Assembly: GCA_963704655.1 (NCBI GenBank)
Contig: OY969927.1
Location: 512,001-576,000, forward strand
Direction: 5' to 3'
DNA from: an uncultured Candidatus Babeliaceae bacterium
GTDB lineage: Bacteria > Babelota > Babeliae > Babelales > Babelaceae
DNA length: 64,000 bases
Shown in pieces: positions 12,486 to 17,973 of the stretch. Within the stretch, counting starts at the first letter, position 1. The number at the start of each line of letters is the position of its first letter. The notes under the pieces were generated by a model. The model did not search any database. It was not told the DNA's origin and was given only the letters and a program-made list of their open reading frames with translations. Both the position numbers and the translations under genes were made by a program.

Positions 12486-13754
12486 ATGATATCCTTGCGA
12501 TCACAATCTGTACAATCTAAACGAGTACGAGCACTAACAGCTAGTACTTTTTTTTTGCTTATCGTTCCACAAAAAATTCAAAGCTTTGAGCCAGCAACTA
12601 TTGTAGCTATTCTTGGCTATGGGTTGGCCGCAGGCAGCCTCGGCACAATGTATAAAGGGCAGGAATTTTTAAATTGGTGGTATGGCACTGGAAAAAAAAC
12701 GGAACATTCGGTCTTTGATCCCAATTGCCCTAAGTGCGTACAAGAAAAAGCTGCTCAAGAAGCACTACATTCGGGCTTTGATCCCAATTGCGCCCAGTGC
12801 ATAGAAGAAAGAGCTGTTAAACAACAAGCACAACCGGTGGTCATCAAAGCTCAGCAGCCAGCACCTGTCAAAACAACGGCTACCCAAGTGCCAGAAACAC
12901 GGGCATCACAAGTGGTTATTAATAATACTACCCACAATACCACTATCACTGCAGCTAAGGGCAATACCATAGTTGTAACACCAGAAGCAGCAGCAGCTCC
13001 AGCACCAACACCGCCGCCAGCACAAACAATTCAAACACAACAAACGGTAGCAGTAGCACCTCAACCAACACCTCCTGCGCAAATAGAAAAGGTTCTTCCA
13101 GCGACTAAAGAACTAGAAACAGCCGTAATTACGTCAGCCCATGGCAATGCTACATCCAATACTTTACTCAATCGGGCTTCCCCTTTAACTACAATTATCT
13201 ACGATCGCGCCCAAGATCTTTATCAAAATCATTACGGTAAGGTACAGATGGCAGCCGCCGCTACAGGATATCTGTATATTTTGTATTCTATTAGTTCATT
13301 ACAACGATACCTGACAGACCCAAAGAGAATCTGCCTCTGGTTTTCAGAATATGATTTGAATAAATTACTCCTGCTAAATCTTGACCAGATACAAGAACTT
13401 GTCATTCAAGAATTTATAACCACCTACAATGTCTCTGATCAAAAAAGCTTAAAGCCCGCTGTTTCAAAATTTCTGAATGATATTGAAACTGAGCTTGCAA
13501 GTCTACAAAGTTACCAGACTATCGCAGGGCGCATAAATACTGTTTCTTCGATCGCTGAAAAATGCTGTTCACCTTTTAGTGATATGGCACGCACGATTAT
13601 ACCGTTTGCAGGCATGGTTCTTGATTATGCACCTACTGTAAGTATAAATAATCTATTTTTTGTTAATAGTACGCTTCAAACGAGCATCCAAGATCGGATA
13701 TCTCGTATTCACTATTACAAAAATATATTCTTACAATCAACCATAGTAGTTTAA
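12486..13754 (+). CDS. Hypothetical protein with two CxxC repeats and a Pro/Thr/Ala/Gln-rich linker
   Basis: HSVFDPNCPKC and HSGFDPNCAQC; low-complexity middle; hydrophobic N-terminus. Confidence 0.75.
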   Translation: MISLRSQSVQSKRVRALTASTFFLLIVPQKIQSFEPATIVAILGYGLAAGSLGTMYKGQEFLNWWYGTGKKTEHSVFDPNCPKCVQEKAAQEALHSGFDPNCAQCIEERAVKQQAQPVVIKAQQPAPVKTTATQVPETRASQVVINNTTHNTTITAAKGNTIVVTPEAAAAPAPTPPPAQTIQTQQTVAVAPQPTPPAQIEKVLPATKELETAVITSAHGNATSNTLLNRASPLTTIIYDRAQDLYQNHYGKVQMAAAATGYLYILYSISSLQRYLTDPKRICLWFSEYDLNKLLLLNLDQIQELVIQEFITTYNVSDQKSLKPAVSKFLNDIETELASLQSYQTIAGRINTVSSIAEKCCSPFSDMARTIIPFAGMVLDYAPTVSINNLFFVNSTLQTSIQDRISRIHYYKNIFLQSTIVV

Positions 13755-13776: not shown

Positions 13777-14322
13777 ATGAAATTTTTACGTATATGCATG
13801 GCACTTTTCAGCTCATCTTTTGCTGCACACGCCATCCCATACAAATCTGCTCAAGATTTTTTAAAAAAATCACTTAATACCGTTCAGGAGTATCAAACAC
13901 CGATCGTCATTGCGAGCATTTCTGCCGTAACTGCGGCTTATATTGGCTATGCAATCTATTTAGACGGTATCGTTAACGACAAAAATAGTTTATGGCATTG
14001 GTCCATGCACCATATTAAAGATGGTATAATCGATCAAGATACACTTATTGGACATGTTGAAGATCGTTACCCTCATCTTAAAGCATTACACCCATTAACG
14101 GCTATTTTTGCAACTGCCCATGCCGCACAAATGGAAATAGACATATGTCTCACCTTGCGCGGGATACTTAAAAGCCTCAAAAGCGTTCATCTTGAATGGG
14201 TTATGAGTGAAACAATAGCAAGTTTAGATAAAAAGCTCGAATGCCTTTATATACTCAAGATTATGCTTGCTAATTGCACCATAGAGACACGCAGTAGATG
14301 TAAAAAAAGAGCCCAGTTATGA
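13777..14322 (+). CDS. Hypothetical secreted or membrane protein
   Basis: Signal peptide (AHA) and one internal hydrophobic segment. Confidence 0.65.
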   Translation: MKFLRICMALFSSSFAAHAIPYKSAQDFLKKSLNTVQEYQTPIVIASISAVTAAYIGYAIYLDGIVNDKNSLWHWSMHHIKDGIIDQDTLIGHVEDRYPHLKALHPLTAIFATAHAAQMEIDICLTLRGILKSLKSVHLEWVMSETIASLDKKLECLYILKIMLANCTIETRSRCKKRAQL

Positions 14323-14997
14323 TACTTTAATACCAAACCTGGGGTGCAGTTTTTTGTAATTAAAAAATAAACAGAATGAACAGTTGTCTGCCTTTGGCGA
14401 ACAACTGTTTTGCCCTAGCATAACAAGAAGACGATTAATTTCTCGCCATTGGTTGGGGGGAAATATTTTTTGCAGGGCAAACTCGGTTTCATCAGGGTTT
14501 TTGGTATTCACCAGTCCAAGTTGGTTTGAAAGGCGATGTACGTGAACATCCACACAAATTGCCGGCTTATTGAAAGCTTCGGCAAGTACTAGATTGGCAG
14601 TTTTCCGCCCTACCCCTTTTATAGAAAGCAGTTCCTGCTCTGTCTCTGGAACCTTACCATTAAACTGGTCTATCAGCTGCTGGCTCACCTCTTTTAAAAT
14701 GGTTGCCTTGCGTCTAAAAAATCCAATCTTATGGATAAGAGCCTCAAGATCTTCTTGAGGTATTTTAAGCATCTGCTGGGGGGTCCTCACCAGGCGAAAA
14801 AGTTCTTTGCAAACATGGTAGGTCACCACATCGCGCGAGCGTAAGCTTAGAAGACAGGCGATAAGAACTAGGTATGGGTCACGTCCATAATCTTGAACAA
14901 GCTGAATAGACATCGGCTCGGGCACTTTTCCTACCAAAGCCGACTCTAAAACTTGCAATACTTCTTGACCATACTCTTTTATATCCTGCCCGGCCAA
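14317..14997 (-). CDS. nth: Endonuclease III (HhH-GPD glycosylase)
   Basis: LLSIKGVGRKTAN helix-hairpin-helix, ICVDVHVHR, C-terminal Cys cluster. Confidence 0.9.
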   Translation of the reverse strand: MAGQDIKEYGQEVLQVLESALVGKVPEPMSIQLVQDYGRDPYLVLIACLLSLRSRDVVTYHVCKELFRLVRTPQQMLKIPQEDLEALIHKIGFFRRKATILKEVSQQLIDQFNGKVPETEQELLSIKGVGRKTANLVLAEAFNKPAICVDVHVHRLSNQLGLVNTKNPDETEFALQKIFPPNQWREINRLLVMLGQNSCSPKADNCSFCLFFNYKKLHPRFGIKVS

Positions 14998-15270
14998 GTT
15001 CTTCCTATCTTAATGCTATAAAATTAGCAATCTACTAACCAGGAATTGGACCACCTATTTCATCATTATCCGATGAACTGGACGCACCTGACGTCCCAGT
15101 ACAAGTGCCTGGATCTGCGTAATCTAATGTTGGTGAATAAGCATAAAAAGCCGGTGCTAATAAACTGCTTATAAACAAGCCTAAAAAAAGCTTTTTAACT
15201 AAATTCATAAAGTTCCTAACCCTTCATTAGCCAATATTCTTTTATACCCTGCCCGGCCAAGATCATCCTA
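14971..15270. repeat. 37-bp direct repeat, copies at 14971-15007 and 15234-15270
   Basis: atactcttttatatcctgcccggccaagttcttccta versus atattcttttataccctgcccggccaagatcatccta, 33 of 37 identical. Confidence 0.85.
15035..15208 (-). CDS. Small secreted peptide (57 aa), not in the ORF track
   Basis: MNLVKKLFLGLFISSLLAPAFYAYSPTLDYADPGTCTGTSGASSSSDNDEIGGPIPG. AGGA upstream; signal peptide resembles that of 15275..15478. Confidence 0.7.
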   Translation of the reverse strand: MNLVKKLFLGLFISSLLAPAFYAYSPTLDYADPGTCTGTSGASSSSDNDEIGGPIPG

Positions 15271-15274
15271 ACGC

Positions 15275-15478
15275 CTAATTTGCACCGGTACCTGGATCTG
15301 ATGGACCACCACCACTATCCCCTGCTGGAGCTGTGTCTGTAGCTACTGGTGCTGCTGGCGCTGGTGCAGATGGAGCCGTCGCATCTGGATCTGGTGGGCC
15401 ATCTGGTAATGCGTAGCAGGTAGGTACTAATAGACCACACAAAAATAACATAGCGAATAAACGCTTAAGTGAGTGCAT
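15275..15478 (-). CDS. Small secreted peptide (67 aa), Pro/Ala/Gly/Asp-rich
   Basis: Signal MHSLKRLFAMLFLCGLLVPTCYA; mature part ends GGGPSDPGTGAN; AGGA upstream. Confidence 0.75.
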   Translation of the reverse strand: MHSLKRLFAMLFLCGLLVPTCYALPDGPPDPDATAPSAPAPAAPVATDTAPAGDSGGGPSDPGTGAN

Positions 15479-15582
15479 ATAATTCCTGACTCTTAGCTAA
15501 ATTTTAAGAATAATAATTTTGGTATATAATATAACTTGTATATGTAATTTTAATAGGTACTCAAAAAAATTCAACTAAAAAA

Positions 15583-17973
15583 ATGTATAATTTCACACCA
15601 GTCCTAGAAACTTATCTTCTATTAGCATTACACTTGGTATGCTTGGCCGTTAAATCGTTTATATTTTTTAAGCTTTTTACTCTTGCTAAAAACTCCAAAA
15701 ATAAACTCCTATGGTCTCTGGTATCAGTAGTGCTCTTTGGTAGTATGTTTGGTGATATCGCTTGGATAATAGTATATCTTCAGCCAATATTTTCGAATTT
15801 AATAAAATCTTCAACCATCACGCTCTTTTCTCGTCTTGCTTGGGCAATGTACGTAATACAGTATCAAGCACTAACTATGTTTATAGAATCGCTTGAAAAT
15901 AAAGAAACCAAATTCAAAACTCATAACAAAATATTTGGTTTTTTTGGATTACTTATTATTTCATACTTTCTTTACCATTCAATAATGGATTATGGCCCAA
16001 TAGCACCATATGAAAAGTTAATAATAACGATAACGAATTTTCACATATTTATCATTTTTATTCCGACTATAATCGCATTCATTCAGATGCTTAAAGCAAA
16101 TAACGCGCCTCGTATTTTAACTGAGCAGATGCGCACTTTTATGTTATTTATCGTAATTCCACACATATTTGTAGAACTTATATTCCGAGACTCATTTAAT
16201 ATATTCCAAAATAGTTTTCCGCATGCTGGCAACTTCCTTGCAGCTACATCATCGATCTTATTAACCTATGCGGTATATTTCTGTTCGAGAAAAATTATTG
16301 GTATGCGTTTTTTAAATATCACAGAACACGTTGAAGGCGAAATACACTTTAACTTTGTTAATGATATAAAAGAAGTCCTGAAAGCGCTTGGCCACGTAAC
16401 CTCGTTAAATGAACTTAAAGGTATTATAAGTAACTTTTATAAAATAGCTTTCAACATACCGGCAGAACGTACGAAACTTTATATTAAATCGCTAGATACA
16501 CTAGAAGATAATAAGTTTAGCAATCTAGTAGAGCCCTATTTGAATGAAGAGTTTATGATCAATAACCAGCTTCTGGTAAAAGATGAGCTAGAATTTTCTT
16601 ATTTTTATGATGAAAAGCAGGAACAAAAAGAGGCATTGAAATTTTTAAATCTCATAAATGCAGATATTTTTATTCCCATTTATGAAAAAAAGACCATAAC
16701 AGCGTTTATAATCGTAGAAAAAAATGCACGGCCACAGACGCTTTTCAGTAAAGTAGAATATGACGAAATGCTTGTATTCAGTAGTTATTTAGGTGCGCTT
16801 ATCCACTTGCTCAGAAATCGCAATTTAGAGGCGTTAATCCAGCAAGAAAAAGAGCTAAAAGAAGAGCTGTATTATAAGCACCAGGAGCTCGGCCACTGCA
16901 AAGAGACCATCAGAGAGTTTTTACAAAAAAACCAGCTTGCCCCAGAATCAAAACAGCTCAATGCCCATATGCTCAAGGACCCATCAAACTGGGATTATAT
17001 GCTCTTTTTAGAAACAACCCATTCAGGGAGGTTAATTAACAAATTGATCCCAGGAACCGGTACACAGATTTTAGATTTTAAGATTAATTTGCTCAAGGCA
17101 GCACTCAGCAAAAAAGCGGTGCTTTTAAATTTACCCGAAGAGGACATTCTTCCAACAGTTGAACTATTACATCATATTAGTTTGCGTGACCATCTAGAGA
17201 CGATAGATATCGGATCAAGTGAGAAGAACCTTGAAGTGGCAATACGCCTTTTTGGTATTAGCCCACTGTTTAGTGCGCGTGAAGCAAACGGGCTCATAGA
17301 GAAAAATGATTTAAATGGCACCATTTTTATCAAGAATATTCATCTTTTAAGCATTCAAACACAAGAATTACTTGCGCACTTTTTAAATACTGGGATATTT
17401 ACGCAACTTAAAAGCGACCGAAAAAAATCAAGCTCTGTCCGTATTATATGTTCATCAAATCAAAATTTAAGCCATCTGTGCCAAACAGGTGTATTTTCAC
17501 AAAAACTGTACCATGAACTCATAAAAACTTCTGCAACACTGCCGTCACTTTTGACCCTAGCGCCAGATGAATTAAGTGACCTGACAGCAGGCTTTATTCA
17601 ACATATTATCTCAGAAAAAAATCCCGCTCATGGCGTTGATTTATCACAAAAAGAACGCGAAAAACTCTTAAGTGATCGCCCGATAAGTCTTCAAGAATAT
17701 AAGGACCGGGTGTACCACATGCTGATTAATAAAGCTAAAAAGAAACAGGTCAAGCAAGAAGATGTCATTGACGCTGCATATTCAATAAGCACCCCAGACA
17801 TGTACAATGTTGCCAAATTGGGCAAAAATGCACTCAAAGACAAACAAATCATGACATATTTGTGGAATAAATTTAAAAATCAAACAAAAATTGCTAAGCT
17901 TCTCAATGTGAATAGATCATCGGTTAATCGCCGGTGTAAAGAATTTAGTCTCATTGAAGAGCAGGCTCAATGA
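15583..17973 (+). CDS. Membrane-anchored regulator: about 7 TM helices, GAF-like domain, degenerate sigma54-activator-like AAA domain, Fis-type HTH
   Basis: Seven hydrophobic segments in aa 1-235. ADIFIPIY...AFIIV is GAF-like. RLFG, GTIFIKNI, VRIICSSNQNL and FSQKLYHEL are NtrC-like remnants. NQTKIAKLLNVNRSSV is an HTH. Confidence 0.8.
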   Translation: MYNFTPVLETYLLLALHLVCLAVKSFIFFKLFTLAKNSKNKLLWSLVSVVLFGSMFGDIAWIIVYLQPIFSNLIKSSTITLFSRLAWAMYVIQYQALTMFIESLENKETKFKTHNKIFGFFGLLIISYFLYHSIMDYGPIAPYEKLIITITNFHIFIIFIPTIIAFIQMLKANNAPRILTEQMRTFMLFIVIPHIFVELIFRDSFNIFQNSFPHAGNFLAATSSILLTYAVYFCSRKIIGMRFLNITEHVEGEIHFNFVNDIKEVLKALGHVTSLNELKGIISNFYKIAFNIPAERTKLYIKSLDTLEDNKFSNLVEPYLNEEFMINNQLLVKDELEFSYFYDEKQEQKEALKFLNLINADIFIPIYEKKTITAFIIVEKNARPQTLFSKVEYDEMLVFSSYLGALIHLLRNRNLEALIQQEKELKEELYYKHQELGHCKETIREFLQKNQLAPESKQLNAHMLKDPSNWDYMLFLETTHSGRLINKLIPGTGTQILDFKINLLKAALSKKAVLLNLPEEDILPTVELLHHISLRDHLETIDIGSSEKNLEVAIRLFGISPLFSAREANGLIEKNDLNGTIFIKNIHLLSIQTQELLAHFLNTGIFTQLKSDRKKSSSVRIICSSNQNLSHLCQTGVFSQKLYHELIKTSATLPSLLTLAPDELSDLTAGFIQHIISEKNPAHGVDLSQKEREKLLSDRPISLQEYKDRVYHMLINKAKKKQVKQEDVIDAAYSISTPDMYNVAKLGKNALKDKQIMTYLWNKFKNQTKIAKLLNVNRSSVNRRCKEFSLIEEQAQ

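Follow-up and report, generated by a model that had tools for sequence, protein, structure and literature searches.

Small divergent genes with a Pro-Pro signature adjoin a seven-helix regulator across the Dependentiae: a candidate peptide-receptor cassette

Introduction

Signalling by a secreted peptide whose cognate receptor gene lies alongside is textbook knowledge for Firmicutes and rare in two-membrane bacteria, and to our knowledge no case has been described in obligate intracellular lineages such as the Dependentiae, which are obligate intracellular parasites of protists. In the Rap-Phr and other RRNPP systems of Firmicutes, a precursor with a Sec-type leader and a C-terminal active part is encoded next to its receptor gene, and the paralogous cassettes are numerous, with a separate peptide for each. 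In the SHP-Rgg systems of streptococci, a hydrophobic peptide gene of about 20-35 codons is divergent from the gene of a DNA-binding regulator, and an acidic residue precedes the C-terminal active part of the peptide (partly after an excerpt of PMC13361665). Here we describe a locus that resembles both arrangements, found in a 64,000-nucleotide stretch of the genome of an uncultured Candidatus Babeliaceae bacterium (contig OY969927.1, positions 512,001 to 576,000; the whole stretch is called the window below). It consists of two tandem small genes divergent from the gene of a 796-residue (aa) regulator, and it is one member of a two-gene cassette that extends across the phylum (Dependentiae/Babeliales).

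Literature searches showed no such peptide-regulator cassette among the papers listed, and full-text searches returned no paper joining Dependentiae with sigma-54. For Chromulinavorax, another member of the Dependentiae, an excerpt of the genome paper names the regulators merR, yebC and fmdB and reports quorum-sensing mechanisms as absent (PMC6561590), and the main text of the comparative-genomics article on TM6 makes no use of the words sigma, regulator, quorum or sensor (PMC4776705).

Results

Two small leader-bearing proteins are encoded head-to-head with a membrane regulator

Translation and modelling of the locus (Table 1) bear out what a sequence-only reading of the window had described, namely two tandem genes of 57 and 67 aa whose products share leaders ending P-x-x-Y-A and contain DPGT and GGP in opposite order, standing head-to-head, across 104 bp, with a 796-aa protein that has about seven transmembrane (TM) helices, a GAF-like domain and a helix-turn-helix (HTH). 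Both small proteins start with a basic stretch followed by a hydrophobic segment that ends P-T-C-Y-A or P-A-F-Y-A. In the 67-aa protein the signal-peptide-like N-terminus comprises 23 aa ending C-Y-A, with a (-3,-1)-rule site after residue 23, and the predicted exported part starts L-P-D-G-P-P-D-P and continues as an acidic tail rich in Ala, Pro and Gly, in which GGP comes before DPGT. The 57-aa protein has a leader of the same type, ending F-Y-A, and a tail where DPGT comes first and GGPIPG second; this paralogue lost the Pro-Pro. Pfam and NCBIfam scans placed neither of the two window peptides in a family, and both are present, nameless, in a public protein collection. A lipoprotein reading of the leaders was considered and rejected, as by eye the sequence ahead of the Cys is unlike a lipobox.

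Orthologues of the 67-aa gene occupy the same place in four other species of the genus, and all of the genus loci that reach the upstream flank (5/5) contain one or two such small genes between the endonuclease III gene nth and the regulator gene. The reading frame of the small open reading frame (ORF) survives indels within the genus, and the ratio of nonsynonymous to synonymous differences per site (pN/pS) is 0.25, at a pS of 0.49, over its first 32 codons when two species of the genus are compared (G000 and G004); where G003 is compared, a one-codon indel inflates the values. In the form typical of this genus, Pro-Pro occupies positions 5-6 of the exported part and is followed by 37-67 low-complexity residues. 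This long peptide is a derived form.

Divergent small ORFs accompany the regulator in other families

We surveyed the 5' flanks of 104 regulator genes from 83 genomes, comprising 44 loci from the sample of relatives (set 1), 40 loci from other families that were picked before inspection (set 2) and 20 second tandem paralogues (set 3). Loci left out before counting were L006, whose contig ends inside the gene, L049, with 132 nt to the contig end, and L007-L020, where the 5' flank was not reached. The leader rule asked for a divergent ORF of 18-120 aa with an ATG start at most 400 bp away and, near its N-terminus, an uncharged 11-residue window with a mean hydropathy of at least 2.0. Such an ORF was found at 40/44 loci of set 1, 31/40 of set 2 and 8/20 of set 3, that is at 79/104 loci in total, against 63/991 genes for the background in the window genome, an enrichment of about 12-fold. 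The search for a divergent small signal-peptide ORF beside homologous regulators, which the sequence-only reading had proposed, thus gave a positive answer. Most of the automatic misses show a candidate by eye, the rule being broken merely by an upstream ATG or by a charged residue, and the automatic hits include probable chance ORFs at L040, L055 (20 aa), L077 (38 aa), L113, L115 and L122 (22 aa).

The same reading had taken DPG and GGP for the motifs to be shared by such peptides, and these turned out to be specific to the genus. The family-wide feature of the peptides is Pro-Pro, often with a preceding Asp or Glu, near the C-terminus, so that the signature can be written [D/E]-x-P-P. A Pro-Pro-tail rule (a divergent ORF of 15-120 aa with Pro-Pro in its last 8 residues) was framed after set 1, and sets 2 and 3 are therefore a fair test of it. 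ORFs of this kind were found at 24/44 loci of set 1, 33/40 of set 2 and 15/20 of set 3, compared with 18/991 control genes, which corresponds to an enrichment of about 40-fold. Among small ORFs with a hydrophobic N-terminus, Pro-Pro was present in the last 8 residues of 48/78 beside the regulator family and of 11/1168 genome-wide, in six frames.

The position of the motif is also constrained. At most six residues follow the last Pro-Pro in 48 of the 60 automatic Pro-Pro peptides, two residues being commonest, and an Asp or Glu stands at -2 from Pro-Pro in 27 of these 60. The commonest form, especially in family f18, is an ORF of 20-40 aa made of the leader, a small residue, [D/E]-x-P-P-x(1-4) and the stop codon, and longer forms have A-x-A-type sites with the motif further along. 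A (-3,-1)-rule site is located between the hydrophobic core and the first Pro-Pro in 60/66 peptides, and the parts that follow it fall in two groups, one of 4-13 aa (28 peptides) and one of 18-73 aa. We make no claim of a broad conservation of the tails because these mostly diversify: across genera, only two pairs of peptides with unrelated leaders share 6/7 tail positions. Genes for signal peptidase I and for an M50 protease similar to RseP are present in the window genome.

A few of the ORFs have unusual forms. At L022 (G013) a divergent 62-aa ORF carries D-[DE]-F-P-P-M-G three times, like a multi-copy pro-peptide. At L096 (G092), upstream of a regulator copy, a divergent 92-aa signal-peptide ORF contains five repeats of C-P-T-P-P-x-R-Y, a PPxY-like motif of the kind found in eukaryotic WW-domain ligands. 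The second cassettes of L108 (G101) and L110 (G074) have a 21-aa ORF that ends N-W-P-P-x-D and has no hydrophobic leader, and this ORF may be a leaderless variant of the peptide.

The regulator is widespread and its paralogues have distinct peptides

The full regulator was matched in 34/41 related genomes, and its 7TM-GAF half in 120/151 genomes sampled across the phylum. The 7TM-GAF half was matched in every sampled genome of families f18 (55/55), f10, f5, f4, f3 and f13, and was not found in the sampled genomes of f11 (0/12) or f6 (0/6). In their source records the relatives are named sigma-54-interacting regulators of Candidatus Babeliales or Dependentiae. Two or more tandem copies of the regulator are present in many genomes, and the paralogues within one genome each have their own distinct peptide, as seen with four cassettes in G006, several in G014 and two in G019. 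The G014 clade has many divergent regulator paralogues, which are 25-35% identical to the regulator of the window. In genus g41, the second (B-type) cassettes of four genomes share a peptide type with a His-His-Val...Glu-Phe-Leu-Asn leader and the ending [YW]-P-P, and in two of those genomes the first (A-type) cassettes have a different type in common, with the ending Gly-[MT]-Pro-Gly.

The regulator combines a seven-helix bundle, a GAF-like domain and a degenerate AAA+ domain

Hydropathy analysis gives seven hydrophobic segments in the regulator, in agreement with an AlphaFold model based on an alignment of 77 relatives (pLDDT 83.9, pTM 0.74). In the model, a short low-confidence linker connects the membrane bundle to the alpha/beta domain, and the long helix that follows (aa 415-450) is the most conserved stretch of the N-terminal half of the protein. 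Because the basic loops lie on one side, the bundle is predicted by the positive-inside rule to have its N-terminus outside and its C-terminus inside. Comparison of the bundle with G-protein-coupled receptors (GPCRs) using VIA-align covered all seven helices (best Z 16.3, root-mean-square deviation 4.3 Å, 242 aligned residues, 5-12% identity), and 50 GPCR entries were obtained at Z of at least 14.7, a level to be read against the Z of about 14 that unrelated helical bundles can reach. The best Foldseek E-value for the bundle was 5e-3, and thus all were above 1e-3. For both reasons, the Foldseek values and the similar Z reached by helical bundles, we take the resemblance to GPCRs as one of topology only.

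When residues 1-250 were compared by phmmer with 1.84 billion representatives, 256 proteins were matched at E ≤ 1e-3, and among the 150 matches listed almost all are 870-970 aa long or are fragments; the bundle therefore appears confined to this architecture. Searches of Pfam, phmmer and Atlas matched the 7TM domain to no family with a known ligand, and the module had no Pfam hit at E up to 1. A weak Atlas lead points to HisKA_7TM (score 0.89, in a cluster with 16% of members carrying PF16927). Sequence variability is higher in the periplasmic half of the bundle (mean entropy 2.45) than in its cytoplasmic half (2.10; p 0.003). Relatives outside the genus are about 905 aa long, and in the model of one relative (pLDDT 83.8) the extra 100 residues or so form a PAS-like unit that follows the GAF-like domain; fold matches for the sensor part of this model were phytochrome PAS-GAF-PHY modules (E 5.5e-5) and a PAS domain (E 1.2e-3). 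The window genus and one 796-aa relative (P0010) are without the PAS-like insert, and the window protein has the GAF-like part only. Pfam recognised neither the GAF-like nor the PAS-like domain in the 46 relatives scanned.

The only Pfam match of the window regulator is to Sigma54_activat (PF00158), at residues 541-647 and profile positions 56-163 of 168 (E 6.9e-13), and the same partial match was obtained with 46/46 relatives scanned. This region had been read from the sequence as an NtrC-like AAA remnant, a description that alignment to chain 3dzd_A corrects, as the domain is of full length with degenerate motifs and is not truncated. In this alignment, the Walker A motif GESGTGKE is replaced by LPEEDILP, the GAFTGA loop by PLFSARE and the D-E of Walker B by K-N. 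Judged by these residues, the AAA+ domain is probably catalytically dead. NCBIfam alignments to TyrR and DhaR reach residue 793-794 and cover the C-terminal HTH, at scores far under the family cut-offs (for TyrR, 61 bits against an equivalog cut-off of 576). Pfam and NCBIfam scans of the regulator found no kinase domain (HisKA/HATPase) and no TPR match. The proposal of a kinase-free membrane receptor that would bind DNA fits this predicted architecture, because no kinase domain was found and an HTH is located on the same chain.

The sigma-54 DNA-binding domain (PF04552) was not found in the window genome (one contig, 96% complete), nor in any of the 41 genomes of the order (0/41), 31 of which are at least 90% complete. 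Bacterial enhancer-binding proteins (bEBPs) without GAFTGA are reported, in an excerpt of bioRxiv 10.1101/2023.06.06.543975, to be active at sigma-70 promoters without ATP hydrolysis.

The peptide genes have translation and promoter signals in a compact control region

Besides the Shine-Dalgarno element of the 67-aa gene (Table 1), a 4-nt Shine-Dalgarno match precedes the 57-aa gene. A match of at least 4 nt at -4 to -16 was found for 37/46 small ORFs of the family, compared with 11.5% of 10,027 random small ORFs and 48% of long ORFs at their first ATG. Promoters were scanned for on the peptide strand with TTGMTA, a spacer of 16-17 nt and TATAMT, the -35 element lying 2-15 nt from the regulator ATG. 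A promoter scoring at least 9/12 was present at that position in 40/84 loci, and the score was at least 10/12 in 17/40 loci compared with 9% of shuffles. Since the regulator's own promoter must overlap the peptide-strand element, the control region is compact and common to both genes. In the alignment it is conserved in 4/5 genus loci, and anchored intergenic alignments showed no conserved block besides the promoter hexamers. The 67-aa ORF is a local G+C peak (58%) beside this 24% region. A terminator scan at the locus found none. The Rfam scan of 14500-16000 gave one chance-level miRNA row (E 0.75), and therefore no known RNA element accounts for the region.

Table 1. Features of the locus with their positions in the window (features of the regulator are predicted)
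Feature	Position	Strand	Basis or remark
57-aa small ORF (distal, tandem paralogue)	15035..15208	-	ORF list and translation
Copy of nth 5' end	15234..15270	.	Repeat D1, partner of 14971-15007
67-aa small ORF (proximal)	15275..15478	-	ORF list and translation
Divergent control region, 104 bp, ~24% G+C	15479..15582	.	Alignment and composition
Shine-Dalgarno element AGGAA of the 67-aa gene	15483..15487	-	Sequence
Sigma-70-type promoter TTGAAT-16-TAAAAT	15547..15574	-	-35 element 8 nt from regulator ATG
Regulator, 796 aa: 7TM, GAF-like domain, helix, degenerate AAA+, HTH	15583..17973	+	
Seven-helix membrane bundle, aa 6-242	15598..16308	+	AlphaFold model
GAF-like alpha/beta domain, aa 258-411	16354..16815	+	Model secondary structure
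Long connecting helix, aa 415-450	16825..16932	+	Model and conservation
AAA+ domain, sigma-54-activator type, degenerate, aa 493-698	17059..17676	+	Alignment to 3dzd_A, Pfam
C-terminal HTH, aa 766-788	17878..17946	+	Near-invariant columns across family

Duplication and neighbouring genes

Downstream of the small genes and on the minus strand lies nth (HhH-GPD, E 6.7e-24). Through a 37-nt direct repeat (14971-15007 and 15234-15270, 89% identity, spacing 263 nt) the first nth codons recur ahead of the 57-aa gene, resulting in a short nth pseudo-start between the two peptide genes. From this repeat we conclude that the two small genes arose by a 263-nt tandem duplication. In G019, a 107-aa fragment of nth is located between two tandem regulator cassettes (L041:139-462), so that nth, peptide gene and regulator gene were duplicated there as one block. 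A piece of nth was thus carried along both in G019 and in the window, and the duplicating unit is therefore the peptide gene plus the regulator gene.

On the other side of the locus, the stop codon of the regulator gene and the start codon of a gene for a XerC-like tyrosine recombinase overlap (17970-17973), and the order of regulator and then recombinase is kept in genus loci L002, L003 and L004, which suggests that the two genes are co-transcribed. Further along in the window, the ORFs at 12486-13754 (422 aa) and 13777-14322 (181 aa) each have a hydrophobic N-terminal segment, and neither matched a significant Pfam family; the 422-aa ORF has a duplicated F-D-P-N-C-x-x-C motif and a middle part rich in Pro, Ala, Thr and Gln. 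Repeat proteins rich in Lys and Ala (AKKAA-type, histone H1-like) adjoin nth in several genera, at L025, L030, L036, L039, L040 and L043.

Discussion

The reading that we favour, and to which we give about an even chance, is that an exported peptide signal is sensed by a kinase-free, DNA-binding 7TM receptor whose AAA+ domain is a scaffold and which acts at sigma-70 promoters, because the architecture, the linkage and the predicted membrane side all fit. Gene linkage and topology make the peptides candidate ligands. The pre-peptide would be made from its own sigma-70-type promoter and Shine-Dalgarno site, would be inserted or exported by means of its hydrophobic leader and would be cut, probably by signal peptidase I. 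A short [D/E]-x-Pro-Pro piece would then be exposed or released on the periplasmic side, where the periplasm-facing half of the 7TM bundle would sense it. By way of the GAF-like domain and then the long helix, the signal would reach the AAA+ domain, catalytically dead and serving for oligomerisation, and from there the HTH, which would act at sigma-70 promoters, beginning with the overlapping intergenic pair and so leading to autoregulation. Export and cleavage, binding of the peptide by the receptor, the DNA target and the read-out, which could be cell density or host confinement, are steps that we infer. More tentatively, and with a probability that we put somewhat below even, the Dependentiae as a phylum may possess GPCR-like receptor/transcription factors tuned to self-made Pro-Pro oligopeptides, forming private, pherotype-like channels that would read density or host enclosure and time the developmental cycle.

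Several points weigh against the peptide-sensing reading. The criteria of the survey were designed after set 1 had been viewed, and related genomes are not independent samples. Of the eight second paralogues that passed the automatic leader test, two look like chance ORFs. Inspection by eye showed no candidate at L095 and L100 (set 2) or at L109, L115 and L117 (set 3), and those of L040, L072 and L121 are doubtful. The peptides of the G014 clade (L057-L060) have no Pro-Pro and instead have a Cys and a C-terminal E-F-[SL]-x-x ending. The window genus is itself atypical, with a Pro-Pro that begins a 44-aa acidic exported part and a 57-aa copy without it, and an exported part of 44 aa exceeds the size for simple porin diffusion. 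The (-3,-1) rule used for the cleavage sites is permissive. The GPCR-like Z of about 16 is barely above the level reached by helical bundles from their arrangement alone, and the variability of the outer half of the bundle, which fits a diversifying specificity, is met by the fact that outward halves of membrane proteins are commonly variable. A repeated operator was not found elsewhere in the genome, as a search with intergenic 18-mers allowing up to 2 mismatches gave only A/T-rich chance matches. Finally, adjacency alone would fit just as well if the peptide were a product under the regulator's control and not its ligand.

This last alternative is the one that we rate highest among the rivals, although we consider it unlikely. 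The regulator would sense something else through its 7TM, GAF or PAS parts, and the peptide would be its nearest target, an envelope or secreted product that perhaps acts on the host through its proline motifs. Divergent regulator-target pairs are indeed common in bacteria, an adjacent promoter is the one most easily reached by a membrane-tethered DNA-binding protein, the GAF and PAS-like domains provide cytoplasmic sensing sites, and eukaryote-like proline motifs occur in the five C-P-T-P-P-x-R-Y repeats of L096 and in the P-P-T-P-P-Y/F tails of L041 and L044. However, the predicted released parts are often of 4-13 aa (28/60), which is small for an effector, and the peptide diversifies among the paralogous cassettes of one genome as a specificity partner would; moreover, the bundle is predicted to be the sole periplasmic part of the regulator and would face the expected position of the peptide tail. 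A partner of the regulator could also stay in the membrane. In this quite unlikely alternative, the short forms are uncleaved single-helix proteins that dock on the 7TM bundle and exert a feedback similar to that of MgrB on PhoQ. Many peptides consist of 20-40 aa with the hydrophobic helix followed directly by x-P-P-x(1-4), no (-3,-1) site is found in 6/66 of them, and their basic N-termini would put the tail at the periplasmic surface beside the bundle, all of which agrees with such a role. Yet canonical A-x-A-type sites lie well ahead of the motif in the long forms, both window genes among them, so that the motif would be freed from the membrane, and the recurrence of a small residue, Asp/Glu and x-P-P at the end of the helix resembles a cleavage site.

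The remaining two alternatives concern the ORFs themselves. Pro-Pro near the stop codon could stall the ribosome, either in an EF-P-dependent manner or in the way of SecM and MifM, so that the small ORF would be an arrest or leader peptide acting in cis. The location of Pro-Pro 1-6 residues ahead of the stop in 48/60 peptides agrees with this, and secretion monitors do combine an N-terminal export signal with a C-terminal arrest motif. Nevertheless, we regard arrest as very improbable: the cassettes have no consistent co-directional downstream gene (nth in the syntenic cassette, other or convergent neighbours in the paralogous L026-L029), the short forms would lie wholly inside the ribosome tunnel at the stall and so would exert no pulling force, and Pro-Pro is followed by 37-67 residues in the window genus and is missing in the G014 clade. 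A view of the small ORFs as frames open by chance within a promoter region, and not as genes, would agree with their shortness and with the fact that most are unannotated or nameless, but it is hardly credible given the enrichments of about 12-fold and 40-fold, the Shine-Dalgarno sites, the pN/pS of 0.25 and the frame kept across indels in the genus.

If the peptide-sensing reading is true, the cassette would represent a class of receptors in which a GPCR-like bundle is coupled directly to DNA binding, with no kinase involved, and an AAA+ activator domain would have been retained as a dead scaffold after the loss of sigma-54. The [D/E]-x-P-P-x peptides would form a family of short ligands that can be synthesised, and the regulation of parasites that are hard to grow would become testable in a heterologous host. 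Even if the peptide is a mere target, the cassette is among the most conserved regulatory units of the phylum (120/151 genomes), and it marks genes that are often missed by annotation.

Compared with described systems, the cassette shares features with several of them. It resembles Rap-Phr/RRNPP as outlined above, but the receptors of RRNPP systems are TPR proteins of the cytoplasm, which depend on re-import of the peptide, whereas the candidate receptor is a 7TM membrane protein without TPR, and its hosts are obligate intracellular bacteria of a phylum other than Firmicutes. With respect to SHP-Rgg, Rgg is a soluble HTH-repeat protein and SHPs have no Pro-Pro and use a dedicated transporter, unlike the cassette described here (again partly after an excerpt of PMC13361665). 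AgrC/AgrD and ComD/ComC have in common with the proposed system a self-made peptide and a polytopic membrane domain with short loops; AgrC and ComD are, however, histidine kinases that work with a separate response regulator, whereas here no kinase domain was found and DNA binding would reside on the same chain.

For the cytoplasmic half, the closest proteins are the bEBPs without GAFTGA that act with sigma-70, namely TyrR, Rhodobacter capsulatus NtrC, Caulobacter NtrC and VspR, which like the regulator combine an AAA+ domain lacking the sigma-54 loop with a C-terminal HTH, TyrR being also its best NCBIfam match. These bEBPs are soluble and most still bind ATP, whereas in the regulator Walker A and B are lost as well, sigma-54 was not found in the 41 genomes and a seven-helix anchor is present; TyrR itself has an ACT/PAS N-terminus in place of the 7TM bundle. 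ToxR and CadC are similar in their membrane-anchored DNA binding and in a target that adjoins their own gene, but have one helix and an N-terminal winged helix. The 7TMR-DISM and HisKA_7TM proteins likewise fuse a seven-helix sensor to a cytoplasmic output; the bundle has no Pfam match to them and, for HisKA_7TM, the weak Atlas lead. The arrest peptides SecM, MifM and VemP have a controlled co-directional downstream gene, which is not so in cassettes L026-L029. Peptide-receptor cassettes as such are known, and what is new here is the architecture of the candidate receptor, the Pro-Pro signature of the peptides and the lineage of the host.

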